A DNA stretch of 64,000 bases. It comes from Nitrospirota bacterium (GTDB lineage Bacteria > Nitrospirota > Nitrospiria > 2-01-FULL-66-17). Position 1 is the stretch's first letter. Each line of letters starts with the position of its first letter. This document shows, piece after piece, positions 25,337-56,736 of the stretch. Under the pieces are notes generated by a model that searched no databases, was not told the DNA's origin, and worked only from the letters and a program-made list of their open reading frames with translations. A program made the translations under genes and the position numbers. The stretch is from NCBI GenBank assembly GCA_016201825.1, contig JACQCD010000002.1, positions 2,080 to 66,079 on the forward strand. Direction: 5' to 3'.

Positions 25337-26962
25337 TTAATAATGAGAGTCGCCGTTCGCTCCCGCTCGCGGTTCCTCGCCAGGCAATCGCGGCTTCGTT
25401 GCGCCCGCGGTCCCGGCGACGGCGCATGGAGCCAAGACAGCGTCTGTCATCCCGTGGATCATTTTCTTGTCCAGCGCACAGACCGTTGCGAGGACTCCGC
25501 CCAACACCACGTCGTCGCCCGAGACAAAGTAATAGGGAGAGAGCCGGGTTCGCCCGGTCATCGCGTGAACGGCGGCGCTCGCTTCGTCATAATACGCCAC
25601 GCGATCGCGCCGTGGCGTGTGAAATTCTTGCAGAACATGGGGCGTGACGCGAAAGGCTTCCAGAGCGTCGGCCACCGCCGCCGACCACGCGTCCCCGGAC
25701 TGGTCGTGCCCAACCACCACGCCGCGACTTCCCCAGGCCCGCTCTGAAAATCCCGACGGTTTGATGACCAGGCGACGCTCGCGCTGGCTCGCCCCCATAA
25801 GATCCTTCCAATCGCGGACCGGGTGACCTCCCAGTGTAAATCCGGCGATGACGGCGTGGGGCGGCACCTCCGACGGATCGAGAATCCATGTCCGGGGAAA
25901 GAGCCCCGACAACCGTTCGATGGTGTCACGCCCCAGGTCGTCTCGCCACCACGCCTCCAGCGCCGGGTGGTGCCAGAGCGCCATGGCCGCCTTCTCCTCT
26001 AAGAAGGCTTTTGCCGGAGTAGTCATCCGGACGGTTCCCTTTTTCGCGGCATAGAGGAAGAGGTCCGATTTCGGGATATTTTTGAGGTCGAACAGCTCGA
26101 AGAATCGATAGAGGACATCCATTCGACATGGGCCATCCGGCATCCCGATGGTCAATCCGTCTTCAGTGAAGGTCACCTCGTGAGGGGTGACCGCCACCGT
26201 CGGAGTGCCCGACGCGGTCAGCGCTCTCGCCATCCACGCCATTTCAGGGCGATAATCCGCCGATTCATCGGAAACGACAATAGCGACGCGGGACACGCTA
26301 CTCTCGGTTGCGACCATACGTGCAAAACCCTGGACCATGCCGCTCCGACCGCCGACGAGGGAGAAACCCTGTTCGCCGTACGCGTCATGGAAGGCCGCAG
26401 TGAGGCCGAACCCTCCCGGGACCGCATCGAGCTCCGATGCGACGAACCCGCTCGCCGTAGCGAAGAGATCGGGCCGCAGGATCCCTGGAGTTTGATCGCG
26501 CACCCGACGCATCAATCCATAGTCGATCACCGCCTGCGGTTTACCCTGGTCAAGGTAACGGTGAACCCATGCCAGCTTCGGAGTCTTGACGCTCGCATAA
26601 TAGAGACGATTGAGCGAACGATAGAAGGCGAGCAGCGACACGCCTAGGCGTTCCAGGAACTCGACCTCCGCCGGGGCCAACCAATACGGCTCAGGGCTCA
26701 CTCGCCAGCGAGGCAGCCCATCGGCTCCCGTGCGGCTGTGCAGCCCATCGGACCGAAACCGTGCGAGCAGCCGGCACCCATCCGACGACGCGTCTCGACA
26801 CGCGACCGGAACGGTCCCACCCGCCACTGGAGGTCCGATGTTCTGATCGGGTAGCAGGTTCAACGGCTGATCCATCCTCCCTGAGGGGGGATAGCCGTGA
26901 CCCAAGACTCTGAAAACACTGGGGAGGGAGGTGCACCGGCGGTCACCAAACACGCGCACCAA
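25337..26962 (-). CDS. Uncharacterised ATP-grasp-like protein
   Basis: 541 aa with RRLVIKPSGFSERAWGSRGVVVGHDQ (an ATP-grasp K-P-x-G-x-S-x-x-G-x-GV type motif) in the C-terminal third. It has no signal peptide. Its TAA stop lies 4 nt upstream of the kamA RBS. The start is uncertain (26962 or the ATG at 26875). Confidence 0.4.
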   Translation of the reverse strand: MVRVFGDRRCTSLPSVFRVLGHGYPPSGRMDQPLNLLPDQNIGPPVAGGTVPVACRDASSDGCRLLARFRSDGLHSRTGADGLPRWRVSPEPYWLAPAEVEFLERLGVSLLAFYRSLNRLYYASVKTPKLAWVHRYLDQGKPQAVIDYGLMRRVRDQTPGILRPDLFATASGFVASELDAVPGGFGLTAAFHDAYGEQGFSLVGGRSGMVQGFARMVATESSVSRVAIVVSDESADYRPEMAWMARALTASGTPTVAVTPHEVTFTEDGLTIGMPDGPCRMDVLYRFFELFDLKNIPKSDLFLYAAKKGTVRMTTPAKAFLEEKAAMALWHHPALEAWWRDDLGRDTIERLSGLFPRTWILDPSEVPPHAVIAGFTLGGHPVRDWKDLMGASQRERRLVIKPSGFSERAWGSRGVVVGHDQSGDAWSAAVADALEAFRVTPHVLQEFHTPRRDRVAYYDEASAAVHAMTGRTRLSPYYFVSGDDVVLGGVLATVCALDKKMIHGMTDAVLAPCAVAGTAGATKPRLPGEEPRAGANGDSHY

Positions 26963-39066: not shown

Positions 39067-39639
39067 CTAATTCAGGAATCGTTCCCGAAATTGATCCAAG
39101 GGGGCGCGGCGTTGACGCCGGAGATCCTCGCGGATGTATCCTAAGCCCGCCACACAGAGTTCAAAGTGTTCCGAAAGCCTTCGAAACAGCGTGGCACCTC
39201 CCACACTTTCCTCTGAACCTTCCTCGGGCAGCTCAGCGACGATCCGGTAGGATCGCTTACCCACCTTGACGTAGTCGAGCAGGAAATCGCCGCTCGCGCT
39301 GATGATCCTGGTTTTAAGACGGGTCAGGTGCTCGGGAAACAACCCCATCATAAACAGCGTGAAATCGCCGATCTGCCGATGTGCATCACGGTCCGCAACA
39401 CCCGAGGTCCCTGACTCAGCCTCCAACAGCATCTCCGATACGAGGGTCCGGGCTCGCCCGTGCTGATCGCGAAACGGATAGGCACGGTCGACGTCAGAGA
39501 AGTCAGCGAGCAGGTCCGCCACATAGCGAATGACGCGGGGGTCCGGCCACCCAAGCTGCTCATAAAAATTCTTCTCCGTCAACACGGCAAAAAATACCCT
39601 TAGCGGATGTTGGCCTCTAACGCGGGAAAGTGGCTGCAT
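39067..39639 (-). CDS. Hypothetical protein
   Basis: 190 aa ORF with no recognised motif and good codon usage. It lies between the SurA-N gene and the M23 peptidase gene. Confidence 0.3.
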   Translation of the reverse strand: MQPLSRVRGQHPLRVFFAVLTEKNFYEQLGWPDPRVIRYVADLLADFSDVDRAYPFRDQHGRARTLVSEMLLEAESGTSGVADRDAHRQIGDFTLFMMGLFPEHLTRLKTRIISASGDFLLDYVKVGKRSYRIVAELPEEGSEESVGGATLFRRLSEHFELCVAGLGYIREDLRRQRRAPLDQFRERFLN

Positions 39640-39726: not shown

Positions 39727-40620
39727 TTACTGAAGATTGTCTGCGACGGACGCCACCGCCGTTGCCAGCGAGAGGGGGTTGACCCGCGCGCCGTTGAGAC
39801 GCACTCCCCAGTGCAGGTGAGGTCCGGACGCTCTCCCCGATGCGCCCACGGCCCCGATCACTTGGGATTTGGCCACCCGATCGCCGGGGTGGACCGTCAC
39901 CGCAGAGAGATGAAAGTACATCGAATAGAGGCCGAGTCCGTGGTCCACAACAATGCTTTTGCCGCTAAAAAAATGGTCGGCAACAAGTTGAACGGTTCCC
40001 TCATTAATGGCCAGCACCGGAGCCCCCGAGGGTGCGGTGATATCCTCGCCGGTGTGCGGTCGTCGAGGTTGTCCGTTGATCACCCGCCTCAACCCGAACG
40101 TCCTTTGCACACTCCCCTCGGAAGGTAAAACGAACTCCCCCTTCCATACCCGGGGCGTAACAGGCCGCATGGTGGCTAACATCGTCCGTTGCTCGTCTTC
40201 CACTCGTTCGACCGTCTCCGCGTCCAGATCGACCTGTGTTTGGGGGAGAGACAGCTTTTGGACCCCAAAATCGCCGGGCAGAATCGTGACGGCCACTCGC
40301 GCCACCGTGACTGGAGCGTCGGCCTTCCGACGCTCCAACACAAAATCACTGGTTCCTGCTACGTCCTCCATATCGACCCCGAGCAAGACCCCCACTCCAC
40401 CAGCAACCGGGAACACCGGGGTTTCCCGATCATGAAACCGCCCCACAAACTCGCCAACGGCCGCCACCCCTTCGGCGGCTCGGAGCGGGAAGGTCAAGGC
40501 AAGAACATCGCCCTGCTTGACCCTTCGAGGTCCCACAGCGACATCGGTGTCATTCCCCCACCCGGGAGCAGCAAGGCCCGTGAGAACAAGGAGCACCAAC
40601 AGTGAACACCCCTTGTTCAC
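39727..40620 (-). CDS. M23-family peptidoglycan metalloendopeptidase
   Basis: HTGEDITAPSGAPVLAINEGTV...VVDHGLGLYSMYFHLS...GASGRASGPHLHWGVRLNGARVNP (HxxxD...HxH LytM motifs). The start is placed at the GTG overlapping the pafA stop (TGACGTG), giving the signal peptide (M)NKGCSLLVLLVLTGLAAPGWG. Confidence 0.7.
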   Translation of the reverse strand: MNKGCSLLVLLVLTGLAAPGWGNDTDVAVGPRRVKQGDVLALTFPLRAAEGVAAVGEFVGRFHDRETPVFPVAGGVGVLLGVDMEDVAGTSDFVLERRKADAPVTVARVAVTILPGDFGVQKLSLPQTQVDLDAETVERVEDEQRTMLATMRPVTPRVWKGEFVLPSEGSVQRTFGLRRVINGQPRRPHTGEDITAPSGAPVLAINEGTVQLVADHFFSGKSIVVDHGLGLYSMYFHLSAVTVHPGDRVAKSQVIGAVGASGRASGPHLHWGVRLNGARVNPLSLATAVASVADNLQ

Positions 40621-40621
40621 G

Positions 40622-42004
40622 TCAACGATGGGAAACGGCAACACCTGCAATCAATTCCTCGACGCGTTTGTTCGAACTGGCGAAGGGGTCCATGCAGAGG
40701 ATCGTCTCTTCCCAATACCCATTGAGTTTCAAGTATGTCCAGTCGACTGTATACGATCGATTTTTTTCTTTGGCGAACTTGATGAAATCGCCGCGGACTT
40801 TGGCCCGCGTGGACTGGGGGGGGATCGTCATCGCCCGCTGGATCTCGTCTTCGGTCGCCAATCGTTCCACCAAATCCTGGCGCTCCAAGAGATAGTACAG
40901 TCCCCGATTCCGCTTCACATCATGATACTGAAGATCCATTAACGCGATGCGGGGATCATCCCACCCGCAATTCTTCCTGGCGGTGAACGAGTCCATCATG
41001 TTCTTCTTGATGACCCAATCGAGCTCCTGAGCGAGCTTCATGGGATTGGTCGCCAGGGTCTGGAGCACATGTCCCCAGTATTCGATGAGGTCGCGAGTCG
41101 TCTCGTCAGCGCTCGTTCCGAGGGCGGACAGATACGCCTCCGCCCGTTCGTAATAGGTCATCTGAATTTCGAGGGCCGTCAATTCTCGACCGTCCTCCAG
41201 TCGAACGCGCTTTTTTAACGTCGGGTCTCTCGAGATGTCCCGGATAGCCTTCACGGGATCTTCGAGTTCCATGCCCTTGACCGTAAACCCTTCTTCGATC
41301 ATCGACAGCACCACCGCCGTCGTGCCAACTTTCAAATATGTCGTGAGCTCGGACATATTCGAATCCCCGACGATGATGTGCAGCCTCCGATATTTTTCCG
41401 CATCAGCATGCGGTTCATCTCGCGTATTGATAATGCTCCGCGACGACGTGGTCGATGACGACGTCTTCTCGTGGATATGTTGGGCCCGCTGGGAGAGGAA
41501 AAAGTGTGTGCGGCCGGAGACTTTCAACACCTTGCCGGCCCCCGTAAATACCTGACGGGTCACGAAAAATGGGATGAGCTGCTCCGTGATTTTCCAAAAA
41601 TCGAGGTCGCGCCGCATCAAATAATTTTCGTGGCATCCGTAGGTGTTGCCCATGGAGTCCGTGTTGTTCTTAAAGATATAAATATCGCCCACAAGGCCTT
41701 CTTCACGCAAACGCTTTTCAGCCATCGGCAGGCAGGTCTCCAACAACCGTTCACCCGCCTTGTCATGAATCACCAGATCGCGAAGCCGGTCACATTCCGG
41801 AGTGGAGTATTCCGGATGACATCCGGTGTCCTGATAGAATCGCGCGCCGTTAGACAGAAAGGCATTCGAGGGCCAACTGTTTGGGATGAGGCCTTCGAAA
41901 ATATAGCCGAGGATCTTCTCCATCGGGAGATACACTCGGCCGTTCGGAGAGAAAATCAGCCCATATTCGTTTTCGAGGCCGAAGATCCGAGGAGGCATCA
42001 TCAC
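40622..42004 (-). CDS. pafA: Pup--protein ligase PafA
   Basis: [69 protein letters not shown] and a C-terminus YTVDWTYLKLNG...ILCMDPF, collinear with M. tuberculosis PafA. The Dop-specific insertion is absent. Confidence 0.85.
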   Translation of the reverse strand: MMMPPRIFGLENEYGLIFSPNGRVYLPMEKILGYIFEGLIPNSWPSNAFLSNGARFYQDTGCHPEYSTPECDRLRDLVIHDKAGERLLETCLPMAEKRLREEGLVGDIYIFKNNTDSMGNTYGCHENYLMRRDLDFWKITEQLIPFFVTRQVFTGAGKVLKVSGRTHFFLSQRAQHIHEKTSSSTTSSRSIINTRDEPHADAEKYRRLHIIVGDSNMSELTTYLKVGTTAVVLSMIEEGFTVKGMELEDPVKAIRDISRDPTLKKRVRLEDGRELTALEIQMTYYERAEAYLSALGTSADETTRDLIEYWGHVLQTLATNPMKLAQELDWVIKKNMMDSFTARKNCGWDDPRIALMDLQYHDVKRNRGLYYLLERQDLVERLATEDEIQRAMTIPPQSTRAKVRGDFIKFAKEKNRSYTVDWTYLKLNGYWEETILCMDPFASSNKRVEELIAGVAVSHR

Positions 42005-42005
42005 G

Positions 42006-42683
42006 TCACCCGCTGAGCTCGATCAATTCTGCTTGCGATAGGCGTTTAAACTTTCGGCCCGGCCGACGCCGATCGAGCACCGCGATTTCCATGTTCTGCA
42101 GTAGAAGCCCTTGATGGCCCACACTTTCCAAGGCCTCCAAACCCTCTTTGAGAGCGGCCGGGAGCGGCCGACGGCCATCAACGTGTTGTTTAAGATGCGT
42201 CATAATGGCTTCTGACCGGCCTCCGATCACCGCGACCAGCCGTTCGTCAAAGATACTGCCGTCAAAAGAGATGCGGTACATTTCGTTCGTGTCGTGTTCA
42301 CCGAGCCCGACGACGAGAATCTCCACCTCCAGCGGTTTGATCTCCTGACTGAAGATGGTACCCAGACTCTGGGAATAGGCGTTCGCCAACGATTTGGTCG
42401 TCACGTCCTCCCGGCTGTAGAGGTACCCCTTCATGTCGGCGTGCCGAATGCCGGCCTTCCGAAGATTTTCAAACTCGCTGTACTTTCCCGCTCCGGCAAA
42501 TGCAATGTGATCATAAATTTCCGAGATCTTGTTGAGCGACACGCTGGGGTTGTCCGCCATCAGAACCAATCCGTGCTCGTACTCCATCGCCACGGTCGAG
42601 CGCCCTCGGGCAATGCCCTTTTTGGCGTACTCGGCCTTGTCCTGCATGATGAGCTCGGGCGACACGTAGTAGGGTAACGCCAT
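42006..42683 (-). CDS. prcA: Proteasome alpha subunit
   Basis: MALPYYVSPELIMQDKAEYAKKGIARGRSTVAMEY...AFAGAGKYSEFENLRKAGIRHADMKGY, collinear with actinobacterial PrcA. Confidence 0.85.
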   Translation of the reverse strand: MALPYYVSPELIMQDKAEYAKKGIARGRSTVAMEYEHGLVLMADNPSVSLNKISEIYDHIAFAGAGKYSEFENLRKAGIRHADMKGYLYSREDVTTKSLANAYSQSLGTIFSQEIKPLEVEILVVGLGEHDTNEMYRISFDGSIFDERLVAVIGGRSEAIMTHLKQHVDGRRPLPAALKEGLEALESVGHQGLLLQNMEIAVLDRRRPGRKFKRLSQAELIELSG

Positions 42684-43498
42684 TATCGCTCCCGCCGCTT
42701 CTCTAAGAAGGCCGCATAAAACGGCTCAATCCGCTCGGTCGTGACGTCGACGATTCCTCCTGCGGTCACGGTTTTCACCGTCGGATAGATCCCGCGTGTG
42801 GGGTCTGGCCCCCCGGTGGCCACGTCCTCTTCCGCCGCGTTGAACAACGCCTCGAGAGCAAGCCCGATCGCATCGTGCTCAGGTAATCCCGGTTTATAGT
42901 ACTGTTTGATGGCCGTCTTAGCGTCTTTTCCCCCGGACCCGGTGGCGTGGTAGTCGGCTTCTTCGTACCGTCCGCCTGCCACGTCGTATTTGAAGATCCG
43001 CCCCTCCCCCTGGCGAGAATCATATCCCGCGAAGATCGGGATCACCACCAATCCCTGAAACGCCGCCGGCAGATTCCCCTTAACCATTTGGGCCAGTTTA
43101 TTCGCCTTGCCATCGACGGAGAGCGGAGTGCCCTCGAGTTTTTCGTAATGCTCTAATTCGGTTTGGAACAAGCGGACCATATCGAGACAGGGACCGGCCG
43201 CGCCGGCGATCGCCATTGCAGACCATTCGTCGACCTTGTAGACTTTCTCGATACGACGGCCCGAGATTTGATACCCCTCGGTAGCCCTTCGGTCTCCGGC
43301 AATCACCACCCCTGCGCTGTACCGGAGCGCCAGAATGGTCGTGCCGTGGGGGATCGACAGGGCGACAGAGGGCGAAACGGCGACTGACGAACCGGGCATC
43401 TGAGCAACGTGGCGGTTGGGACTGAGGTGTGGATAGTGGGTGATCAGGAGATTGTAAAAACTTGACCCAAGCGGATCAGGGTCTGAGATCACCGTCAC
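42683..43498 (-). CDS. prcB: Proteasome beta subunit (propeptide plus Thr1 nucleophile)
   Basis: A propeptide, then HG/TTILAL (Thr1), GDRRATEG, and a conserved Lys33 / GSGG context (ATGSGGKDA). Confidence 0.85.
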   Translation of the reverse strand: MTVISDPDPLGSSFYNLLITHYPHLSPNRHVAQMPGSSVAVSPSVALSIPHGTTILALRYSAGVVIAGDRRATEGYQISGRRIEKVYKVDEWSAMAIAGAAGPCLDMVRLFQTELEHYEKLEGTPLSVDGKANKLAQMVKGNLPAAFQGLVVIPIFAGYDSRQGEGRIFKYDVAGGRYEEADYHATGSGGKDAKTAIKQYYKPGLPEHDAIGLALEALFNAAEEDVATGGPDPTRGIYPTVKTVTAGGIVDVTTERIEPFYAAFLEKRRER

Positions 43499-43692
43499 TC
43501 TCCCCCTTTTTGGACGTAATTTTTCACGAACTCTTCGGCATTTTCTTCCAACACTTCGTCGATTTCGTCAAGCAGTTTATCGATGTTCTCTTTGATCTTC
43601 TTCCCTTTTTCGAGAACTTCGGGGTTGGGAGTTGCCGCCGCGTCGTCACGTCGCCCGACTTTTTTGAGATCTCGTTTTTTGTCCTGTGACAT
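43495..43692 (-). CDS. pup: Prokaryotic ubiquitin-like protein Pup (C-terminal Gly-Gly-Glu)
   Basis: 66 aa MSQDKKRDLKKVGRRDDAAATPNPEVLEKGKKIKENIDKLLDEIDEVLEENAEEFVKNYVQKGGE. GGGGGG lies 8 nt upstream of this ATG. The C-terminal helix region is Pup-like and the protein ends in GGE. Confidence 0.8.
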   Translation of the reverse strand: MSQDKKRDLKKVGRRDDAAATPNPEVLEKGKKIKENIDKLLDEIDEVLEENAEEFVKNYVQKGGE

Positions 43693-43761
43693 CGTCATCA
43701 CCCCCCTTGGCTGCGCCCAGACACAAACAGATGCGTTCCAACCCCGCGTCAATAGCCGGTA

Positions 43762-45240
43762 TTAGGCACTCAGGCGGGACACCAGCGACTCCACGGTGTC
43801 CGATTCGTCCAATAACCCTCCCACTAACTCCTTGGTGCCGCGGGCTGGCTCGTTGAGGGGAATCCGCTTCACCACCGCTTGTCCTACGTCGAACAAGATC
43901 GACGCCCAACTCGCGGCGTAGATTTGGTCGGGGAATTTCTCCAGACACCGTCCTCGGAAGTATGCACGGGTATCGGACGGCGGAGCGACCATCGCCTCAT
44001 CGACCGCCTCCGGATCGAGCAGTCGATCCACGTAACCGCCCTTTTCGAGGGCCGAGAACAACCCTTTCTCGGGCCGCAAATCGTGGTACTGCAGATCCAT
44101 CATCGCAATTCTGGAATCGGTCCACTTGCAGCCTTTACGGTCGATATACGACTGCAGGAGGTCTCGTTTGATGACCCAATCGATCTCCCGCGACAACTGC
44201 GATGGATCGCGAGCGAGCAGATCGAGCACGCGCTCCCACCGCGCCAGGATATCCCTGGTTTCGGGATCCGCTCCACGCTCCGCACAATATCGATGCGCGG
44301 TTTCCAGATAATATTCCTGAATCTGCACGGCGGTCCACTGCCGGCCATCTTCCATTGCAATGGGCTGCTTTAAGGACAGGTCGCGCGACACATCTTTTAT
44401 CGCATGCACCGCATCGGCCAATTTCAGCTCCTTGACCGGATACCCCGCCTCGATCATCGACACGACGAGAGCGGTTACCCCCAGCTTGAGGTATGTCGTG
44501 ACTTCCGACATATTGGCGTCCCCCACGATGACGTGGAACCGCCGATATTTGGTCTTGTCGGCATGGGGCTCGTCTCTCGTATTGATGATGGGACGTTTCA
44601 CCATGGTGTTGAGGTCCACCAAGACCTCAACAAAGTCGGCGCGCTGGGAGATCTGGTACTGAGCAGGATTCGCCCGATTCTCCGCCCCGACCTTGCCGGC
44701 TCCGGCGTAAATCTGCCTCGTGACAAAAAACGGGATCAACTGCGTCACGAGCCGCATGAAGGGAACGGATCGCGACACGAGATAATTCTCGTGATAACCG
44801 TAACTGTTCCCCTTCCCATCGGTATTGTTCTTGTAAATCACGAACCGATGTTCCCCCGCCGTACGTTCTGCCCCAACGCGGCACGCCTCCAAAATACGTT
44901 CGCCGGCCTTTTCATAACGCACCACGTCTCGAACACTCGCGCACTCTGGGGTGGAATACTCGGGGTGCGCACCGTCCACGTACAAGCGCCCCCCGTTCCC
45001 GAGCAACTTGTTCAGCAATCGATTGTAATCCGGAGCTGGACGCTCCTTTTCCCCCTCCACTTCAAAACCTCGGGCATCAACTAACGGGTTTTCATTCTCG
45101 TAGTCCCAGAGAGTATTTCTGGACGGAACCGCGTCCACGCTGTTAACAAGCAAAATGGCGTTGGATACCGGGTCCTGGGCCGCGGCATCCTTGACCGCCA
45201 CCCCGAATTCCGTCTCGGTTCCGAGAATACGAGGGGTCAT
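43762..45240 (-). CDS. dop: Pup deamidase/depupylase Dop
   Basis: GTETEFG, plus the Dop-specific ~40-residue insertion ([22 protein letters not shown]...). Also [44 protein letters not shown] and [11 protein letters not shown], collinear with M. tuberculosis Dop. Confidence 0.85.
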
Positions 45241-46985
45241 AAATAGTGCCCGGTCGTCACGGTTTCGATCTTACGGGACTCGGTCACGCGACTGGTGATG
45301 GTGCGCACGTGCACAATTTTCTCGCTCTTCCGTCCGGCAATCTTGGCCCAATCGTCGGGGTTCGTTGTATTCGGAAGATCCTCGTGCTCTCGAAACTCAT
45401 CGCGCACGGCCTTGGACAGATCCTCGGCTCGGATGCCGCGTTCGCCTCCCCCTATCGCGCGTTTGATCGCGTATTTCTTTGCCCGAGCCACGACGCCCTC
45501 AATCAGCGCACCGCTCGCAAAGTCCTTGAAGTACAAGATCTCTTTCTCACCGTTGGCATAGGTGACTTCCAGGAATTTATTGTCCTCGCTCGCGCTATAC
45601 ATCTGATCGACGACCTCAGCAATCAGGTTCGGCACCACCTCGTCCACCCCCCGGCCCTCGGGCAGACTGTAGGGAAGGTCCAGAGACAAATACTTGCCGA
45701 AGATCTCTTTGGCCGCCCGGCGATCGGGGCGGTCGATCCGAATCTTGACGTCGAGACGGCCCGGGCGGAGGACGGCTGGGTCAATCAGATCTTGGCGATT
45801 ACTCGCGCCGATCACGATGACATTCCGAAGGCGTTCCACGCCGTCGATCTCAGCCAGGAATTGAGGAACGATAGTCGACTCCACATCCGACGAGATCCCG
45901 GTCCCCCGCGTGCGGAACAGAGAGTCCATTTCGTCAAAGAAGACGATGACCGGCATCCCCTCCTGGGCTTTATCCTTGGCCTTCTTGAACACTTCGCGGA
46001 TCTGACGTTCGCTTTCTCCCACATACTTGTTGAGCAACTCGGGCCCCTTGACGTGGAGAAAGAAGCTTTTCACTTCCCGCCCCGTCAGGTGGCCGAGTTT
46101 CTTCGCTATGGAGTTGGCCACCGCTTTCGCGATCAGCGTTTTCCCACATCCAGGCGGACCGTATAAGAGAATGCCCTTGGGAGGAGAAAGGTGGTACTCC
46201 GCAAAGAGGTCCCGATGGAGGAACGGCAACTCGACCGCGTCGCGGATCTGTTCGATCTGATCCTCGAGCCCACCGACCTGCTCATAGGTCACGTCGGGCA
46301 CTTCCTCCAGAACGAGTTCTTCGACCTCCGACTTCGGGAGCTTTTCCAGCACATAGCCCGACCGCGTGTCGAACAGCAGATGGTCCCCCACGCTCAACCG
46401 CTCGTCCCTCAGAGAAGCCGCGACCTCGGCCACACGCTCTTCGTCGGCTCGCAACATAATAATCGCGCGATGGTCATCCAAAAGGTCTTTCAGCTTGACG
46501 ACTTCTCCCTGGACCTCAAACGCCTTCACCTCTACGACGTTGAGGGCTTCGTTAAGAATAAGCTGCTGGCCCTTTCGGAGGTCCGTCGCCTTAAGATTCG
46601 GATGAAGATTCACCTTCATCTTCCGGCCCGCGACATAGATATTGACAGTCCCGTCCTCATTGAGGTCGGAAAACACCGCATACGAAGACGGCGGCGCCGT
46701 CAGCTTTTCGACCTCGAGCTTGAGCGCTTCGATCTGCTCTCGCGCTTCCTGAAGGGCTGCGATCAGTTTTTCATTATGTCGATGGACTTGCTCCAAGCGA
46801 TCCCGGGACTGCTCAGTCTCGCGGAACTCTTCCTCCATCGACCGGATCTGAATCTGGAGCTTCTCGATCTCCCTACGGTATATCAAGGGCTCATCAGAGT
46901 CATTCCCCGCCAACTGATCCTGCAATTTTCTAATGGTGGTTTTTAAGGAATTGAGCTTGCCTGACTGGCGCTTCGACTCGCTCAT
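45237..46985 (-). CDS. arc: Proteasome-associated AAA ATPase ARC/Mpa
   Basis: An N-terminal coiled coil, OB domains, an AAA module [22 protein letters not shown] (Walker A) and a C-terminus ...TVTTGHYL (penultimate Tyr for gate opening). Confidence 0.85.
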
Positions 46986-47042
46986 GGCCCCTCCTTTCCA
47001 CGTGATCCTCTTTAGGTATGATACAGGGGCGCCGCCTGCACT

Positions 47043-47714
47043 TCAATTGTAACACCGCCGGAAACTCGGGTCAACCGCTCGGCTTCCTTCCGACGCGGAG
47101 ACGGTGGCGACACACGCCCGCGCAGCCGACTGAATATCCCGAGCAGCTATGATCTCGGAGATCACGGCGACGCCATGAGCACCGGCGCCCATCACGGCTG
47201 CAATCCTGTCACGGGTGATCCCCCCCAGAGCGAAGACCGGAACCCCACTGTGTCGACACGCCTCAGCAAGCGCGCCCACCCCGACGGGCGGGCAGTATCG
47301 TATCTTCGACGGGGTCTCAAACACCGGGCCGAACGTCACGAAATCGGCGCCCTCGTCCGCCGCGCGCCACACCGCCTCAATCGAATGCGTCGAGACCCCG
47401 ATCAGTTTCCCTGGGCCAAGAATGCGGCGTACCGCCCTCGTCGGCAAACTGTCGGCCCGAAGGTGGACGCCGTCGGCGTCCACCGCCAGCATAACATCGA
47501 TGCGATCGTTAATCAGTAGGACGGCGCGCGCACTGTTCGTGAGAGCGCGAACTTCGGCGGCGAGTTCGAGGAGCGCCCGAGGGGCGAGGTCCTTCTCGCG
47601 CAACTGAATCGCGCGAACTCCTCCTCGCAACGCATCGGCCACCGTCTCGGGCAGCTGGCGTTGGCCGGCGAGATGGCGATCTGTGATCAGATAGAGCAAC
47701 CAATCGGGCGTCAT
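47043..47714 (-). CDS. thiE: Thiamine-phosphate synthase
   Basis: LYLITDRHL...IQLREKDL...DGVHLRADS...GVSTHS...GADFVTFGPVFETPSK, a canonical ThiE. Confidence 0.8.
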   Translation of the reverse strand: MTPDWLLYLITDRHLAGQRQLPETVADALRGGVRAIQLREKDLAPRALLELAAEVRALTNSARAVLLINDRIDVMLAVDADGVHLRADSLPTRAVRRILGPGKLIGVSTHSIEAVWRAADEGADFVTFGPVFETPSKIRYCPPVGVGALAEACRHSGVPVFALGGITRDRIAAVMGAGAHGVAVISEIIAARDIQSAARACVATVSASEGSRAVDPSFRRCYN

Positions 47715-47803: not shown

Positions 47804-48880
47804 TTACTCGATCAAATCCTCCAGAGGACTTGACGCATTGGCATAGAGCCTCTTGGGAATTCGGCCCGCGCGATACGCGAGTCGTCCCGCCCGAACCGCA
47901 TCCCGCATGGCTTCCGCCATCATGAGCGGATCTTTGGCGCCCGCGATGGCGGTGTTCATCAACACGCCGCCACAGCCCAGTTCCATGGCAACGGCAGCGT
48001 CCGACGCCGTCCCGACTCCCGCATCCACGATGACCGGGACCTTGACCGTCTCCATGATAATCCGGAGATTATAGGGGTTACGGATCCCCAGGCCCGATCC
48101 GATCGGTGCGGCCAACGGCATCACCGCCGCACATCCGACATCTTCAAGTTTTTTGGCCACGATCGGATCGTCCGTGGTGTAGGGCAGAACGACGAAACCT
48201 TCCTTGACCAAGATTTTGGCCGCCTGCAGCAAGGCCTCGGTGTCGGGAAACAGCGTCCGCTGATCACCGATCACTTCCAGCTTGACCAAATCAGACACCC
48301 CGGCCGACCGCGCAAGCCGCGCGGTCCGAACAGCCTCTTCGGCGGTATAGCATCCTGCGGTATTCGGAAGAATTCGATAGACCTTGGGGTCAAGATAATC
48401 CAGCAGATTGTCGCTGGACCGATCGAGAATATTGACCCTCCGCACGGCGACGGTAACCATGTCGGCCCCTGAGGCGTCGATCACTCGTTTGGTTTCAGCG
48501 AAATCTTTAAATTTCCCCGTCCCGACGATCAGCCGAGATCTGAGATCCAGAGGGCCAATGCGTAGGCAATCCTCACCCCCGCCCCCCCCGACAAAACTGA
48601 CAATCTCGACGCGATCTCCCTCCTCAAGGGCTTTCCCGGCAAACGCGCTGCGCTCGATCACCGACAGATTCACCTCCACGGCAACCCGGTCCGGAATGAC
48701 TCCGAGATTGGCCAGCAGTTGGCCGATGGTCGTGCCTCGCGCCAGCGCGGATGCCTCTCCGTTGACCGTGACCACTACGTGAGCAACACCACTCGATCGC
48801 ACCGTCACCCTCCCACTCGGCTGCCCGAATCGGCAACGCTCAGTAAAACGATTATAACGAGCGCTGGAAAATGAAGTCAA
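47804..48880 (-). CDS. thiG: ThiS-ThiG fusion (sulfur-carrier domain plus thiazole synthase)
   Basis: N-terminal ThiS: [45 protein letters not shown]...[12 protein letters not shown]. Then ThiG: [19 protein letters not shown]...[15 protein letters not shown]...[14 protein letters not shown]. The track start is a TTG; the real start is probably an internal GTG near residue 32-37. Confidence 0.75.
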
Positions 48881-49209
48881 ACCAGAGCGGGGAACAGGCC
48901 GCGGACGAATGTCAGATATTCCTGAGGGGGGTTAATCAGCTCGATGCCCATCTCGGCTTTTCTGAGGTGCCGAGCTAACGCCGGCGGAATGCGCATCGCC
49001 CAGGTCACGTACCCTCGCAACGAGAATCCCTCCCGATCGGGCAGACGCATCTCCAGAACCCGAAGCGTCTTGGCGGGATAAATGGCGGTGGTTTTAACGA
49101 AGAGCCCGGCCTCCGAAACGTCGATCGTAAAGCCGAGCTGGGACGGGTGGTTAACGCCAAATCGAACTTCGATTCGCTTGGTACGCCGAACCTGTTTTTG
49201 TTTTTCCAT
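48877..49209 (-). CDS. PilZ-domain protein (putative c-di-GMP receptor)
   Basis: 110 aa with an N-terminal RRTKR (RxxxR) motif and DVSEAGLF (D-x-S-x-x-G), the two c-di-GMP-binding PilZ motifs. Confidence 0.6.
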
Positions 49210-49214: not shown

Positions 49215-50030
49215 TTACCGCCGGGGCGCAATGACCGTTTCAGCGGAATACGGGCTTTCGCAGCCACGGGCATCCACCGCCGTGACCCGGTAGGTCATCG
49301 CCCCTTTCGCATCAAGCCCGGTGTCCACGTAACTTGTCGCGCTTTGGGGGGAGGGGGTCACCCGAACTCGACCACGGTCATCTTCGCGATAGAGATGGTA
49401 CCGGAGCCCCGGATCCCTAGGTCCTGACCACGCTAGGTACACACTGGCCCGCCCTTGGCGGGGGCTCCACAGGTTGAACGGCGGAGGAGGCGGCGTTGCG
49501 GTCGGCATGGACGATGCGGTGACAATGAACCGGTGAGGGGTCCCCACGTGGTTCGTAAAAGAGTACGGCGACGGCGAGGCCGCCAGGTCATACGTCTGGC
49601 CGGTCAGAGCGTCCTGGAGCGTCCAGGCAACCTGCGCGCACTGGGCGGCAACGGTGGAGGGGGGCGTCCACGACAACGAGATCGCAGCGTCCGCCTGATC
49701 CGACGTCACCTCGATGTCCCACACCTGAGGAAAGGTGTCGCCACGCACATCCCACCACAGCGATTGCCGGCCGGCGGGATAGCTTGGGTGTCGGATCACC
49801 GCGGTCAACACGTCGGACGGAAACGCGGCCACCGCGTCCCACGAGGTATCGAAATTATCCGTGCCACCCGGTTCGACTCCGAGGCGCAAATGGTTCTGCG
49901 CCATCCCCCCTTCGGCGGCCTGCGAGGGAACCGAGACCGTCAGATCGATTTCCGAGGCGTGCGCCGGGAGCGCCATCATGCCACACCCCGCCATCAACAC
50001 CGCGCCCACCCATGCTCTCCGTGACTTCAC
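49215..50030 (-). CDS. Secreted protein with C-terminal fibronectin type III domain
   Basis: A GTG start 4 nt after AGGAGG, with the RBS overlapping the stop of the giant gene. The signal peptide is KSRRAWVGAVLMAGCGMMALPAHA. The C-terminal FN3-like region runs PPPFNLWSPRQGRASVYLAWSGP...YHLYRED...YVDTGLDAKGAMTYRVTAVD. Confidence 0.5.
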   Translation of the reverse strand: MKSRRAWVGAVLMAGCGMMALPAHASEIDLTVSVPSQAAEGGMAQNHLRLGVEPGGTDNFDTSWDAVAAFPSDVLTAVIRHPSYPAGRQSLWWDVRGDTFPQVWDIEVTSDQADAAISLSWTPPSTVAAQCAQVAWTLQDALTGQTYDLAASPSPYSFTNHVGTPHRFIVTASSMPTATPPPPPFNLWSPRQGRASVYLAWSGPRDPGLRYHLYREDDRGRVRVTPSPQSATSYVDTGLDAKGAMTYRVTAVDARGCESPYSAETVIAPRR

Positions 50031-50039: not shown

Positions 50040-53000
50040 TTAGGGACGGGTGAACACGAGCACGGCATCCGACCCGAAACTCTGGACCCATGCTCCGTTC
50101 CACGGCTTGAACGTCGCCGGTGGACTGGTCGAGAGTCCGTACGGTTGCGTCGTCACCCCGTCATACAGATAGATCGCCGGGCCGACCCAGCCGTTTGTCA
50201 CCGCATTCTGATACGGCACCGGCGCTCCGGCCCCACGTTTGACCTGAACCTGGCTCAACAGAATATCCTGCTCGTACGGGTTCCCGACCATGTTGAATCC
50301 CAACTCGAGCGGCACATCAAAGGTCGGACTAGAGACCACCGGACCTGGCGCGTCCAAGACCGCCTGCGTGCCCAGGGAGCGAAGAAAATACGCTGATCCG
50401 GCGTGGATCGGACCAAGAACCCCGCACGGGGAAAACGCGGGCGTTGACACCGTCCCCTCGTAGCACCCGTCGGTCGGAAGGGGGCCGGACGGATTCCAAC
50501 GGTAGGCGTACACGGGAATCCCGACATCGTCGCCGAACACTCCATCGGCCGTGTCGCTGCCGACCACGGGAATCCGGGGAACCGACACCATGGTATAGCC
50601 GAGTCGCAATGCCGTCCGTCCCACGGCCACGTTCGACAAGCCCGATCGATTGCCTCCATCGTCGATGGCTTGGATCGCGAAGTAATAATTTGTATTCGAG
50701 GTCAGCCCACCCACGAGTACTTGCTGCGCCTGGCCGGAAGGACCGGGAGCAGCCGCCGCCATAACCGTTCCCTGGCTGAAATTAACCGATGTGAGGGGGA
50801 ATGTTGCGTAGCGTACGTCGTACGCCGCGGCGGTTCCGACCGAGCCGTCGTCGCCGGTTGCCGTCCACGTGAGCAAGAGCGACGCGCCCTTCGCCGCGCC
50901 GGAGAACACGGCCAGATCCGTGATCACGGCCGGGGCAATTGTGTCTGCGGACGGAGGGGCGGTTGAGGCGTCTAAAACATTCGACACCGTACCAAGCTGA
51001 CTGAACGCGTCCATGGCCCTCACCGCCACGTGGTAGGTCGTCCCCGGAACGAGGCCGTCGATGACCAGGCTTGCCGTCGTCCCGCTGCTCTGGGGAGTGT
51101 GGAGCGTGTACGGCGTCGCCGTGTCGAAATTGAAGGGGGTCGAGGTCGAGTATCGCACCAGGTAGCCGGCCAGCGGGCCCGAGTCGTCGACGGGAACGGT
51201 CCATTGAACACTCACGGTATTCGCCGTGGGCGCCGCGGCGCCAGGTCGGAGGTCGGCAATCGCCGGCGGGGGTTGATCAACTGGGGTTGTCACCGTCACC
51301 GGCGCCGACCACCCCGACGCATTCGGAATTTCATCCAACGCCCGGAGCTCAAACACGTAGGTGTTGCCTCCGCGCAGCGTGGAGACCGTCAGCGTTTCGG
51401 TTCCACCGGGAGTCTTGGTGGGGGTGATCGCTTGTACACTCGTAACTGTTCCGAGTGTGCGGCGCAACTCGTATCGGCCGACCATCCCCCCGGCTAACCC
51501 ATCGTCCCCAACCGCCGTCCACGTGAAGCTCACGGATATCGGCGTGGGCGCGCCTGCCACCAACGCTGGCGTCGCGGGAGGCGTGGTGTCGGCCGTCACC
51601 GGCGGCGGGGTGATCCCGGGACCCGCTCCACTCGAGTGTTGCGCCAAGCTCACGGCGACCGCGCGACCGGCGACCAGCGTATTTCGGGATAGCACGGCAT
51701 CGAACGCCGACACCAGACCGGAGCCGCTCGCTTGCGCCTCAAGGGCGGTCGCGGCGTCCCAGGCGGTTCCCGTCCACCGTGTGAGCGTGACACGACCCTG
51801 CGTGTCGAACACGCTGAGCGCCAAGCCGTCGGTCCCGCGGGCGGACGCGAGCTCGATCCACGCCGGGTATGGGGTGAAACTCACTGCTGCTCCCGCAGCG
51901 TGGCTAGCGGCAGATGTCCCGAGAGTACCACGAGTCAGACCCGACAGGATCGTCACCGTGCCTATCCCACTCGGCATCTGGCACGAGGTCGTGGTTTCGG
52001 CCTTGCTGGTATACCGAATGGTCTCGACATCCACCGCGACAAGGCCCGAGAACGGGAACGCGATGTCGTTACAAATGGACAGCGCTGTTCCGGACGCCAA
52101 TACAGCGGAATCGAGCTTCGCCGCCAACACCGTCGTCGGCAGCGGCGACGGGATGGGGGACTCAGCCGACCAGCCCCCGGCGGACGACCACGCCCGCGAG
52201 GCGCCGCGCTGGCCGGCCTGAGTGGTGTACGCGGCCAACAGCTCCCCGCTCGTTCCCTCCCACGCGAGATCAAAGCTCCGGCCACCGGCCTCGCTCATCA
52301 GACTCGTGGTCAAGGTGTCGGCGGTCGCCGACCATTGCGCCCCGTCCCAGATCAGGACATTGAGCGCCAACGCCGATGTCCCGCTGCTTGCGGCCAGCGC
52401 AATGCGATTTGAGGTCGCGGAGAGATCGCCCACCAGTCGGAGGGCCGTGAGGGGACCGCTCCCCGCAGACGGCGTCGTGCCTTCGACGCCCCATCCGCCG
52501 ATGTCCGCTAGATCCCGACTCCACACGCGGTAGTGCGGCGTGCTTTCTCCTGCTGCTGCCCACGCGGCCATCATCCTTCCCGTCACCCGTTCGAACGCAA
52601 CATCGACGATTGGCGCGTCGTGACCTGCCGCGTTGGTGGTCAACAGGACGGAGTCTTCCCACGCCTGGCGACTGCCTCGCCAGACCACCGCGGCGACGTC
52701 GTCGTTCTGGTCTTCGTAGACAAGAACCATGTCGTTCGTCGCCGGGCGTGCCTCAAGGCGAACCCACAGCGGTCGGCCCGTGGTCTGTTGGCCGTTGACC
52801 AGATCCTCGACCAGCGCTTCGGCGCTCCAGCTTGCGCCGTCCCATATGCGATAGCGCAGCGAGGTGGAGTCAGTTCGCGCGTAGACGACCACAGCGTGTC
52901 CGGTCTGCTGCTCGTACGCCACGTCCACGGCCTGCGTGGGCCGCGCCAGCCCGACCGACGACGTGGCCTCGATCGCGCCGGTCCACACCTGGCCGTTCCA

Positions 53001-56000
53001 CACACTGAGCATCAGGCGGCGCTGATCATCCACGACGGCCAGGATCCGCTCATCCCGAATCGGATTGGCCTTCATCACCTGCCAGACCGGGGAGGCGGAA
53101 AGGGACGGGCCGGTCAGCCGGCTCGACCATGCTCCGCCTATCCATCGCTGGTACTGAACGGCCGGAACGCCTTGCTGGCCGTATGACGCGATCGCCGAGA
53201 TCAGGTCGGCCGGCGGGGTTCCGACGTAAAACGCCCTGTCCGCGGTGATGCGCCCCCCGTCAGGATTCGTGACGGTTAGGGCATGGTATCCCGCCGCGGC
53301 ACCGGTCGCCACGGTCAATTGGGCGCTCAGGGTCGCCGTGTCGATCCGCGTCAGCCCGCTCACTGTGAGCTCGCTGTCAAAGGCAATCCCCACGCCGGGT
53401 TGGAAGCCCGCGCCCACGATGGTGAGCGCAATCGCGGGACCCTGATTCCCGTAGGCAGGCGTCAACGTCGAAACGGAGGGCCCCGCGTTGATCGTCATCA
53501 GACCCGATCCCCGTCCGTCGTCGGAATTGGTCACGACCACCGGATAACTCCCCGGCAGAACACTTGGTGCGACCGCCACGTTCGCACACGCGATCGTGGA
53601 GTCATTCGTCGCCGCGCACGTTCCGGTGACACCGGCGGGGAGCGTCACGGTGGCTGCGACCAGGGTGCCCGCATCAAAGTTTCCCCCGCTCACGGTGAGC
53701 GACATCCCGGACGCCCCGACGCCCAGCGCCGGACTGACCGATGCGACCGTCGGCGGCGGATTGATCATCACGCGACACGTGGAGCACCCCGAGGTAAACC
53801 CGCTGGGGGTCGTCAACGTCACGTCGCGAAAACCCGGGGCGGCGGTCTCCACCACGTTGATCGTGACCGTTCCCCCGTCGCCGTCCGCGTTGGCGCGGAA
53901 ATTGGCGATGGGATTGGTCACCTGAACATCATAGGTGCCGGGTCTTAACAGCGGATCCGTCGGGTCAAGCGACCGATCCGTGTCCCAGTAAAACTTGATC
54001 TGCTCCGGGCTGACGTACACGCACGGCGTGGAGGAGGTCGGCGTTGAACCTTGGACCGCCACGCAGGAGAGATCGCCCACGACGACCGCCGCTCCGGGCC
54101 GGAATCCGGAATCGGCATCGCTGAAGCCGACAATCGTCACGGCCCGGCTCGTGGTAATCCCGGCCGTGACGACGGCGGGGGCCAGTTTCTCGACGCGAGG
54201 CCGCGGAGCTCTGATGGTGAATCCACCGGGCAAGCTCCCTAGCCCCGCCCCGACGTAGGAGGGATTTGTCACCTGCACCGCGTACGAACCGGGCTGTATC
54301 GCGGTTCCTGGTGAGGTTGCTCCATTATCCCAATAGAATTCCAAATGCGTATTACTCACATAGACGCACGGCACGGTCGGACTCGCCACCGTTCCCGAAA
54401 CCGCCGTGCACGTGAACGTCCCAACCGTGATCACTGGCCCATCGGCCCCGACGGGCGCATAGAATCTTGAGCCCCTGATCGCGACGGATTGACTCGGGGT
54501 CACCGCAAAGTCGACCGTCGAAGGCGTCACGCTCTGGATGATGGGGAGCGGAGGAGCGACGGTAAATGCCTTGTCGAGGAAGAACCATAAGCCGCCGGCG
54601 CTCTGAGGGTTCGTTACCTGCACCGGATAGACACCCGGCGCCAGTCCCGTGTTGGCCCAGTAGAAACTGAGCCGCGTCGCGCTCACGAACGCAAAAGGAA
54701 CCGTGGCCGTGGCTTGCGAACCACTCACTGTGACCCCGGACAGGCACGTCCTCGGCTGGCACACCCCTCCGGTCAGCGTCCCAATCGTGACGGTGGCTCC
54801 AGTGGTGAAATTCGTCCCGAAGATCGAGATCGACTGACTCGCGGTCACGTCGTACGTCACCGGGCTCAGGACGACGGTGGTGATGGTCGGCTGCGGAGCA
54901 TCCACCCTGAACCCGTCGGCCAGACTCACCGTTGCGCCGCCACTCGCCGCGGGATTGGTCACCGTGACGGTGTACGAGCCGATGGCCAGCGACGTGTTGG
55001 GCCAGTAGAAACTCAGCCGGCTGCTGCTCACAAACACAAAAGGGGTCGTCGCGGTCGCCGTTGCGCCCGCCACCGTCGTCCCCGGCAGCGTGGTCGTCGT
55101 CGTTGGGCTGCTGATCGTGATCGTGGCGCCCACCAGGAAATTCGTCCCGAAGATCGACACCGCCGTACTCGGCGTGACCCCGTAGGTCGCCGAACTCGGA
55201 AACGTCGAGGTGACCGTCAACTGGGCTCCCGCGACGGTGAAGCCGTCGACCAGCGTAGCGGCCAGACCACCCGCCGCGGCGGGATTCGTGACCTCCACGG
55301 TATAGGTGGCCGCATCCAGCGACGTGTTGGGCCAGTAAAACCTGAGTTGGCCGCTGCTCACGAAGACAAAGGGCGTCGTCGCAGTCGCCGTCGTGCCCGC
55401 CACCGTGGTCCCCGACAGCGTTTTCGTCGACGAGGGGCTGCTGATCCTGACCCGGGCTCCAACAACGAAACCCGACCCGAAAATGCTGATACTCCCGGTC
55501 GCCGACACTCCGTACGTAACGGGGTTCGGGCTGGTGCTAGTGACCGTGGGTTGCGGGGCGGCCACACTGAAGCCGTCTGCCAGGCTCGCCCCCAACCCTC
55601 CGGCGGCCGAGGGATTGGTGACTTGGACGGTGTACGAGCCGATGGCCAGCGACGTGTTGGGCCAGTAGAAACTCAGCCGGCTGCTGCTCACGTAGACGAA
55701 CGGGGTTGCGGCGGTCGCTGTGCTGCCTGCCACCGTCGTCCCCGACAAACTCCCCACCGTGATCGTGGCCCCCACGATGAAACTCGACCCGATGATCGAG
55801 ATCGAATTACTGGAACTGATGCCATAGGTGACTAGCGTGGGGCTCACGCTGCTGACCGTGGGTTGCGGAGCCGCCACACTGAAGCCGTTTGCCAGACTCG
55901 CCCCCAACCCTCCGGCGGCCGAGGGATTGGTGACTTGGACGGTGTACACGCCCGGCAGCAGCGCCGTGTTGGGCCAGTAGAACTTGAGTTGGCTGCTGCT

Positions 56001-56573: not shown

Positions 56574-56706
56574 CCGCCCCTCCTTAAAAAAAAGAGTAGT
56601 GATGACCGGGGATGACACGAATCCCCTCTGCCTTAGACCTGGACGGGCGCGATTTATTCCGATTTTGCGCGTGCGGCGCTCAAAGCCCGGAACAGGATCG
56701 GCCGCC

Positions 56707-56736
56707 ACTATATCGGTGATATTTCAAGGCTGTCAA
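56707..56736 (-). promoter_or_regulatory. Candidate sigma70-type promoter for the giant gene (-35 TTGACA, 18-nt spacer, -10 TATAGT)
   Basis: The minus-strand reading is cTTGACAgccttgaaatatcaccgaTATAGTggc. It lies between the DUF3105 stop (56748) and the giant-gene start (56573), implying a ~125-nt leader. Confidence 0.35.

Follow-up and report, generated by a model that had tools for sequence, protein, structure and literature searches.

An intact Pup-proteasome gene set, probably one operon, retained in a Nitrospiria genome

The window, by which we mean the whole 64,000-nucleotide stretch of Nitrospirota DNA that was analyzed, carries an intact, canonical Pup-proteasome system of the actinobacterial type. 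We hold with high confidence that this system belongs to a Nitrospiria genome by vertical inheritance at the level of the class and that it probably forms one operon. The conclusion is carried by the gene identities, gene order and junctions, by the catalytic and docking residues, and by synteny and base composition, all of which were observed directly. This uncultured Nitrospirota organism is therefore predicted to have the full gene set with which proteins are tagged with Pup, depupylated, and degraded by an ATP-dependent proteasome.

Organization of the locus

In the list of open reading frames (ORFs), all six Pup-proteasome genes lie on the minus strand at 40622-46985, in the order arc/mpa-dop-pup-prcB-prcA-pafA. 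The first, arc/mpa (45237-46985), encodes a proteasome-associated AAA+ ATPase of 582 amino acids (aa), and dop (43762-45240) encodes the depupylase/deamidase of Pup (492 aa). With the ATG at 43692 as its start, the pup gene (43495-43692) encodes 65 aa; the mechanical ORF is longer and runs up to a TTG at 43752. The ATG is preceded, about 9 nt upstream, by the G-rich Shine-Dalgarno sequence AAGGGGGG (43708-43701), which lies inside the dop-pup spacer (43693-43761), and the Pup start MSQ[DE]KK is kept among relatives. The beta and alpha subunits of the 20S proteasome are encoded by prcB (42683-43498; 271 aa, GTG start) and prcA (42006-42683; 225 aa), and the Pup-protein ligase is encoded by pafA (40622-42004; 460 aa, GTG start).

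Read at the nucleotide level, the arc/dop (TTATGA) and pup/prcB (GAGTGA) junctions overlap by 4 nt, and prcB and prcA overlap by 1 nt (TAATG). At the prcA/pafA junction (TGA-C-GTG) the start of pafA is uncertain within a few codons: the gap is 1 nt with the GTG at 42004 and 4 or 7 nt with one or the other of the two ATGs directly after it. These are the overlapping or adjacent junctions, on one strand, that an earlier sequence-only reading had listed for the six components. The only real spacer within the six-gene block is the 69 nt between dop and pup. The thiE-arc junction (46986-47074, minus strand) holds two putative sigma-70-like matches, which are patterns from a consensus scan only (TTGACC-17-TACAAT at 47074-47046 and TTGAAG-17-TATCAT at 47046-47018), and the arc ATG is preceded by a strong Shine-Dalgarno sequence, GGAAAGGAGGGG. 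The promoter scan as a whole gave only weak consensus matches. The terminator scan found no terminator downstream of pafA, and there were no Rfam matches to structured RNAs in the operon, the one match being a distant tRNA-Met. Each of the six genes is single copy in the window, with no second copy of the system or of pup such as has been reported for Leptospirillum. Expression of the six genes as a single, tightly coupled operon is probable.

Directly after pafA, on the same strand, lies a gene for an M23-family peptidase (39727-40650; PF01551, 100.1 bits). The ORF as called mechanically begins at a TTG (40650) and overlaps pafA, and an alternative GTG at 40620, placed before a signal-peptide-like segment, is 1 nt past the pafA stop (TGA-C-GTG), so that the start codon is ambiguous by a few codons. 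In almost every Nitrospirota locus that extends past pafA, the M23 gene adjoins it. It is possibly a cotranscribed seventh gene. A weaker possibility, weaker also than the reading of the pup relocation discussed below, is that the peptidase is functionally tied to the Pup-proteasome system and may be translationally coupled to pafA. A Pfam scan of 20 neighboring ORFs found no domains matching the accessory genes pafBC, bpa, and cpa.

Protein identities and predicted function

Identity was judged by the curated cut-offs of the NCBIfam equivalog models, which all six proteins exceed; the E-values, far beyond chance, run from 5e-18 for Pup to 1e-223 for the ATPase. The gene identifications made earlier from the letters alone were thus confirmed for each component. 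The ATPase scores 743.7 bits with TIGR03689 (cut-off, 504.75) and aligns over residues 47-577 with Mycobacterium tuberculosis Mpa (7px9; 645.8 bits). It combines a coiled coil at the N terminus with two OB domains and an AAA module (Pfam Prot_ATP_ID_OB_N, Prot_ATP_ID_OB_C, and AAA), and it has the Walker motifs GPPGCGKT (A, residue 276) and IVFFDE (B, residue 347). Its C terminus is GHYL, a penultimate-Tyr proteasome-docking motif of the GQYL type, and 63 of 65 Nitrospirota orthologues end in GHYL or GHYF. Docking on the 20S core through this motif is the predicted function. Pup (TIGR03687, 64.7 against a cut-off of 41.45; PF05639, 77.1 bits) aligns with M. tuberculosis Pup up to the C-terminal end, which reads ...EENAEEFVKNYVQKGGE and terminates in GGE. 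Such a Pup would be competent for ligation without deamidation.

Both subunits of the 20S core are well supported. PrcA is a bacterial-type alpha subunit (TIGR03691, 283.8; cut-off, 139) that matches the Rhodococcus alpha subunit over residues 1-220 (1q5q_A; 215.4 bits). PrcB scores 305.1 with TIGR03690 (cut-off, 191.9) and begins with a propeptide of 52 residues (43343-43498), for which processing at HG/TT is predicted, exposing Thr1 (codon 43340-43342). In alignments to the mature chains from Rhodococcus (1q5q_H) and M. tuberculosis (2fhg_H), residue 53 falls on their residue 1, the active-site residues Thr1, Asp17, and Lys33 are all present, and the processing site x[GA]/TT[IV]L is conserved among relatives. 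The alignment to the mature chains and the motif check rule out a PrcB without Thr1, an outcome that the sequence-only reading had named as fatal to its interpretation.

The two Pup-ligase-family proteins are clearly separated. The 492-aa protein scores 579.6 with the Dop model TIGR03688 (cut-off, 492.3) and only 423.8 with the PafA model, below its cut-off of 551.3; conversely, the 460-aa protein scores 573.1 with the PafA model TIGR03686 and 432.4 with the Dop model, which is below the Dop cut-off. Dop matches Acidothermus Dop over the full length (4b0r; 507.9 bits, against 296.4 for Corynebacterium PafA), and its D89 aligns with the catalytic D94 of that protein. PafA matches Corynebacterium PafA, also over the full length (4b0t; 381.3 bits), carries the N-terminal ExE nucleotide/Mg motif as GLENEYG, and has in FYQDTGCHPEY the catalytic Asp, which pairs in the alignment with the residue of Corynebacterium PafA that is replaced by Asn in 4bjr. 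The Dop-loop region (45001-45120, minus strand; Dop residues ~41-80) lines up with the loop of the Acidothermus protein and faces gaps in both the window PafA and Corynebacterium PafA in a MAFFT alignment, in which the insertion is confined to Dop sequences. The insertion had been claimed for Dop and its absence for PafA, and both are borne out. In a neighbor-joining tree anchored by 4b0r and 4b0t, the two proteins fall into separate clades. The possibility that both ORFs are the same paralogue, likewise named in advance as a refutation, was ruled out by the reciprocal equivalog scores, the PDB matches, and this tree.

Homology to the mycobacterial, Corynebacterium, Acidothermus, and Rhodococcus proteins allows a mechanism to be proposed. 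Because Pup would be made with a C-terminal Glu (GGE), PafA should be able to use it directly, and it would phosphorylate the gamma-carboxylate of Pup in an ATP-dependent step and then ligate Pup to substrate lysines. The N-terminal coiled coils of the hexameric ATPase would bind Pup, and the tagged protein would be threaded and unfolded by the hexamer, which would use the C-terminal GHYL to dock on the 20S core at its alpha rings. Autoprocessing of PrcB at Gly52/Thr53 would expose the Thr1 nucleophile, leading to degradation of the substrate. Dop would act mainly as a depupylase, recycling Pup or rescuing substrates, and its deamidase activity would be dispensable in this organism; GGQ variants in close relatives suggest that this activity is retained. 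Ubiquitin-like tagging with ATP-dependent compartmentalized proteolysis, the function predicted earlier, is therefore supported at the level of sequence.

Alternatively, pupylation could be chiefly regulatory and nondegradative, with a 20S core that is minor or idle, as in corynebacteria lacking a proteasome. Such pupylation is documented in Corynebacterium (review PMC3511204), but the window has intact prcB and prcA genes, placed between pup and pafA with translational coupling, the Thr1/Asp17/Lys33 triad is retained, and the ATPase still ends in the penultimate-Tyr docking motif that the ATPases of proteasome-less species are reported to have lost (PMC3511204). We consider a nondegradative role improbable and favor a degradative system.

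Inheritance within the Nitrospirota and the position of pup

For comparison we kept the best 80 of 522 confirmed PafA relatives, each from a different Nitrospirota species. PafA identity to other Nitrospirota is 74-95%. Essentially all loci of sufficient length (~60 among the 80 species) share the block thiSG-thiE-arc-dop-(pup)-prcB-prcA-pafA-M23 in synteny, and protein identities across these loci are graded by relatedness. Therefore, any transfer must be older than the radiation of the class Nitrospiria. The results favor a vertically retained trait of the class, and there is no sign of acquisition by the lineage of the window. For the Nitrospirae system, an origin by transfer from Actinobacteria/Acidimicrobiales has been proposed in the literature, which is also the source of the direction and donor of such an ancient transfer as given here. 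The sequence-only reading had offered horizontal acquisition or lineage-specific retention; of the two, retention, here vertical and at the level of the phylum, is favored by the synteny, the core-gene flanks, and the normal GC at third codon positions (GC3). That reading had also called the system patchily distributed outside Actinobacteria, which does not hold within the Nitrospirota: the system is "largely conserved across Actinobacteria and Nitrospirae" (PMC7947786), and conservation of the pathway in both phyla is described in several papers (PMC7947786, PMC2588565, PMC3511204).

A recent acquisition, in the form of a genomic island transferred from Actinobacteria into the lineage of the window, is highly improbable. 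It would fit the proposed actinobacterial origin and the total GC of the block, which at 0.54-0.59 is below the 0.62-0.68 found across much of the window, but this lower total GC is due to codon positions 1 and 2, that is, to amino acid composition, and not to GC3. The GC3 of the block (0.68-0.72) is within 1 standard deviation of that of the other window genes (0.746 +/- 0.070), and the core genes next to the block (thiSG, M23, and SurA-like) have the same GC3 as the block itself, so the comparison with flanking genes that had been suggested as a check speaks against acquisition. The operon borders carry neither mobile-element genes nor tRNA or repeats, and the nine-gene block is shared across Nitrospirota species with graded identities. 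We rejected recent transfer on the per-gene GC1/GC2/GC3 values and the synteny across the 80 species. It is scarcely credible that the operon is an actinobacterial contaminant or sits on a misbinned contig, even though the system is best known from Actinobacteria: the best 80 of 522 PafA relatives all come from metagenome-assembled or other genomes titled Nitrospirota, Nitrospiria, or Nitrospira (one is labeled 'uncultured Nitrosospira', probably a label for comammox Nitrospira), the complete chromosomes CP114561.1 and OY970371.1 among them share the flanks, and the operon's neighbors are core genes, with mreBCD/PBP2/rodA/topA contiguous with it in the window.

Within the vertically inherited block, the position of pup differs between lineages. 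It is kept between dop and prcB in the window, in Manganitrophaceae, and in several groundwater lineages, and it is absent from the operon in 49 informative Nitrospiraceae/Nitrospirales loci. A tblastn artifact was excluded with a profile hidden Markov model run on all six-frame ORFs and with the exact gap sizes, and no pup remnants were found in the four larger gaps of pup-less operons. True loss was also rejected, as pup is located elsewhere in the same genomes: in four of four Nitrospiraceae/Nitrospirales cases examined, it has been relocated upstream of recJ-relA/spoT. The recJ-adjacent relA/spoT gene encodes a (p)ppGpp synthetase/hydrolase, and the clade with relocated pup includes nitrite-oxidizing and comammox Nitrospira. 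In the literature searched, we found no paper describing this relocation. The relocation itself is observed; its regulatory meaning is speculation. It is conceivable, although rather unlikely, that the window has the ancestral dop-pup-prcB order and that relocation in Nitrospiraceae/Nitrospirales separates the control of Pup supply, perhaps in a way linked to starvation or the stringent response. If this were true, pupylation would be regulated in one way in the lineage of the window and in another in Nitrospira, although the enzymes are orthologous. The shift of pup to recJ-relA may interest those working on the evolution of pupylation or on Nitrospira physiology.

Comparison with known systems

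The system is already known. It has been described in Nitrospirae since 2008, and Nitrospirota Pup-proteasome loci are covered by Iyer et al. 2008, Barandun et al. 2012, and a 2020 Mol Biol Evol study (PMC7947786). Four window proteins are exact GenBank entries from a Nitrospirae metagenome-assembled genome (MBI3606404.1 and MBI3606406-08.1), annotated as proteasome ATPase, PafA2, Pup, and alpha subunit; Pup is MBI3606406.1, 'ubiquitin-like protein Pup'. The locus is a clean, compact reference example of a PupE (GGE) operon, with little significance beyond correct annotation.

The M. tuberculosis system (mpa, dop, pup, prcB, prcA, and pafA) has the same six components in the same relative order. 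The two also share Thr1/Asp17/Lys33 of PrcB, the Asp of PafA and Dop, the C-terminal helix and GG motif of Pup, and the architecture of the ATPase with its penultimate-Tyr C-terminal motif, which is GQYL in M. tuberculosis and GHYL in the window. They differ in that the window Pup ends in GGE and not GGQ, and because of this ending no deamidation step should be needed. In addition, the window pafA is followed by the M23 peptidase gene, with no pafB/pafC, and the alpha subunit has 225 aa, compared to 248 aa in the M. tuberculosis PDB chains. Other Nitrospirota (Leptospirillum, Nitrospira, and "Ca. Manganitrophus") have the same compact orthologous operon with shared flanks, and their Pups, like that of the window, mostly end in GGE; in most Nitrospiraceae/Nitrospirales relatives, however, pup is missing from the operon, whereas the window keeps it in place. 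The Corynebacterium-type locus (pup-pafA, no proteasome) resembles that of the window in its PupE (GGE), PafA, Dop, and ARC-type ATPase. In contrast to the window, which has intact prcB and prcA as well as the docking motif of the ATPase, proteasome-less species have neither (PMC3511204).

Gene order, identity and catalytic residues

The six genes of the Pup-proteasome system lie consecutively on the minus strand in the ORF table of the window, as arc/mpa (45237-46985, 582 aa), dop (43762-45240, 492 aa), pup (43495-43692, 65 aa counted from the ATG at 43692), prcB (42683-43498, 271 aa), prcA (42006-42683, 225 aa), and pafA (40622-42004, 460 aa). Read at the nucleotide level, arc and dop overlap by 4 nt (TTATGA), as do pup and prcB (GAGTGA); prcB and prcA have 1 nt in common (TAATG), and prcA and pafA are 1 nt apart (TGA-C-GTG), provided that pafA starts at this GTG, which is directly followed by two in-frame ATGs. 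The sole real spacer within the operon is the 69 nt between dop and pup, with a G-rich Shine-Dalgarno sequence about 9 nt 5' of the pup ATG. This start opens with MSQDKK and is kept in relatives. The coordinates and junctions proposed in the sequence-only reading were fully borne out.

All six proteins scored above the curated cut-offs of the NCBIfam equivalog models: the ATPase with TIGR03689 (743.7 bits; cut-off, 504.75), Dop with TIGR03688 (579.6; 492.3), Pup with TIGR03687 (64.7; 41.45), PrcB with TIGR03690 (305.1; 191.9), PrcA with TIGR03691 (283.8; 139.05), and PafA with TIGR03686 (573.1; 551.3). Their Pfam architectures are as expected. Among solved structures, M. tuberculosis Mpa aligns with residues 47 to 577 of the ATPase (645.8 bits), which carries Walker A and Walker B motifs and a C-terminal GHYL; the alignment with M. 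tuberculosis Pup runs to the last residue, and PrcA matches the Rhodococcus alpha subunit. PrcB has the catalytic threonine on which the earlier assignment had been made to depend: its residue 53, at the HG|TT site, falls on residue 1 of the aligned mature beta chains of Rhodococcus and M. tuberculosis, and Thr1, Asp17, and Lys33 (mature numbering) are present. The equivalog scores, structure matches, and catalytic motifs bear out the functional reading.

Dop and PafA resolve as distinct paralogues, each failing the cut-off of the other's model: the PafA model gave 423.8 on the 492-aa protein (cut-off, 551.3) and the Dop model gave 432.4 on the 460-aa protein (cut-off, 492.3). Acidothermus Dop was matched over the full length of Dop (507.9 bits), Dop-loop segment included, and D89 aligns with its catalytic D94. 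Corynebacterium PafA was matched over the full length of PafA (381.3 bits), where an Asp aligns with the position that 4bjr has mutated to Asn. Window, Nitrospirota, and PDB sequences form two clean clades in a neighbour-joining tree, which places the window Dop with 4b0r (Acidothermus Dop) and the window PafA with 4b0t (Corynebacterium PafA), so the concern that both ORFs might be the same paralogue does not hold. Among the sequences shown in the alignment, the Dop-specific insertion is restricted to Dop sequences.

Predicted operon extent and working of the system

The tight gene coupling, together with a strong Shine-Dalgarno sequence and promoter-like hexamers at the thiE-arc junction, suggests that the six genes form a single, putatively co-transcribed operon. 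No terminator was found downstream of pafA, which is consistent with a single operon. Directly after pafA lies a gene for an M23-family peptidase (39727-40650, minus strand), as in nearly every related locus that reaches past pafA. Its mechanical start gives a 29-nt overlap with pafA; an alternative GTG at 40620, 1 nt past the pafA stop, repeats the TGA-C-GTG junction of prcA and pafA. This repeated junction hints at translational coupling, and the M23 gene may be a seventh gene of the operon.

By homology, PafA would activate the gamma-carboxylate of Pup with ATP and then ligate Pup to substrate lysines; since Pup ends in Glu, it would need no prior deamidation. The coiled coils of the ARC/Mpa hexamer would capture Pup, and the conjugate would be unfolded and fed into the 20S core, on which the GHYL tail is expected to dock the hexamer. 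Self-cleavage of PrcB at Gly52|Thr53 would make the active site. Dop would be mainly a depupylase. The C terminus is GGE in 90 of the 120 best database Pups and GGQ in the other 30. Both endings occur among close relatives of the window, so the deamidase function of Dop has probably persisted in the clade.

Inheritance of the operon and relocation of pup

A PafA search over one genome per GTDB species gave 522 confirmed relatives. The best 80, which were examined, are all Nitrospirota, complete chromosomes included. The closest among these 80 are 95% identical in PafA (a 'Nitrospiria bacterium' MAG and 'Nitrospirae bacterium RIFCSPHIGHO2_01_FULL_66_17'), and their DNA identity to the window is only about 72 to 75%. 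When the window proteins were compared with these loci by tblastn, the order thiS-thiG, thiE, arc, dop, (pup), prcB, prcA, pafA, M23 peptidase appeared in essentially every sufficiently long locus. In the window, the operon is flanked by core genes, with the thiS-thiG fusion and thiE upstream and the M23 peptidase, a conserved hypothetical gene, a SurA-like chaperone, an RDD protein, mreB, mreC, PBP2, rodA, RNase G, dprA, and topA downstream. Its six genes are single-copy within the window, and no pafBC, bpa, or cpa-like genes lie near it. Total GC of the block is lower (0.54 to 0.59) owing to codon positions 1 and 2. GC3 of the block (0.68 to 0.72, versus 0.746 ± 0.070 for other genes) stays within 1 standard deviation and is the same as in the adjoining core genes. 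The shared gene order, core flanks, and normal GC3 therefore give no sign of recent acquisition. Horizontal acquisition, one of two origins offered by the sequence-only reading, is not supported here, and lineage-specific retention is the only one that fits this genome. In the class Nitrospiria, the operon is old and has been inherited vertically.

The position of pup varies. It lies between dop and prcB in only 17 of the best 80 loci; these belong to Manganitrophaceae, some groundwater lineages, and the clade of the window. The arc-dop-prcB-prcA-pafA operon has no pup in 49 informative Nitrospirales/Nitrospiraceae/Nitrospira loci, of which 45 have dop and prcB 14 to 110 nt apart and 4 have them 210 to 344 nt apart. 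These pup-less pafA loci were drawn from L015-L080 (e.g., L017 8486-8512 and L022 8492-8512) and set against L081 8001-8210, L083/L084 8001-8204, L087 6001-6204, and L088 6001-6198. Neither phmmer nor a profile HMM found a pup ORF within 10 kb on either side of the 49 loci, and the larger dop-prcB gaps contained no pup remnants. A profile search of a 5.8-billion-protein collection did find Pups labelled Nitrospiraceae, one of them on the 3.16-Mb contig that carries L042, some 60 kb from the operon, and another on a different contig of the MAG from which L044 came. In four of four independent look-ups the context was pup-recJ-relA/spoT-DUF192, with pup immediately upstream of recJ, and in three a proton (H+) pyrophosphatase gene lay upstream of pup. 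As pup is missing from the operon yet encoded elsewhere, beside recJ-relA/spoT, it is relocated in this clade; the window keeps the canonical order. The literature searched contained no mention of this relocation, which is a modest comparative-genomics note and no property of this window.

A spacer of about 246 nt between dop and prcB is conserved in two Nitrospira loci that lack pup in the operon (L062 8176-8423 and L080 6092-6340). As it shows no similarity to pup and every frame contains stop codons, this spacer is possibly a non-coding element.

Neighbouring features and prior annotation

Several other minus-strand features of the window were noted. The ThiS-ThiG fusion (47804-48880) is a 358-aa ORF (ThiS, residues 37 to 100; ThiG, residues 109 to 352) directly upstream of thiE and then the proteasome operon; its position 5' of thiE is constant across Nitrospirota loci, where only some tblastn matches reach the ThiS part. 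A giant ORF (50040-56708, 2222 aa) has a fibronectin type III/purple-acid-phosphatase-N-like domain near residue 1830 as its sole recognisable domain, the remainder having no Pfam match at E≤1e-4. Directly downstream is an fn3-containing protein with a signal-peptide-like N terminus (49215-50030, 271 aa). A 110-aa ORF (48877-49209) that Pfam did not match at E≤1e-4 is a candidate PilZ-like protein: its RxxxR and D-x-S-x-x-G motifs (RRTKR ... DVSEAG) are reminiscent of the c-di-GMP-binding PilZ domain. ORFs of 190 aa (39067-39639) and 541 aa (25337-26962) had no Pfam match; the former is kept after the M23 gene in nearer relatives (44 to 73% identity). A tRNA-Met (CAT; 4741-4815) was the sole Rfam or ARAGORN match within the 64-kb window.

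GenBank already contains exact copies of the four window proteins that were looked up, on a 76,672-bp contig of a Nitrospirae MAG: the proteasome ATPase (MBI3606408.1), Dop, annotated as 'PafA2' (MBI3606407.1), Pup (MBI3606406.1), and the alpha subunit (MBI3606404.1). The operon belongs to a system that has long been known in Nitrospirota, of which it is a canonical and previously annotated example.
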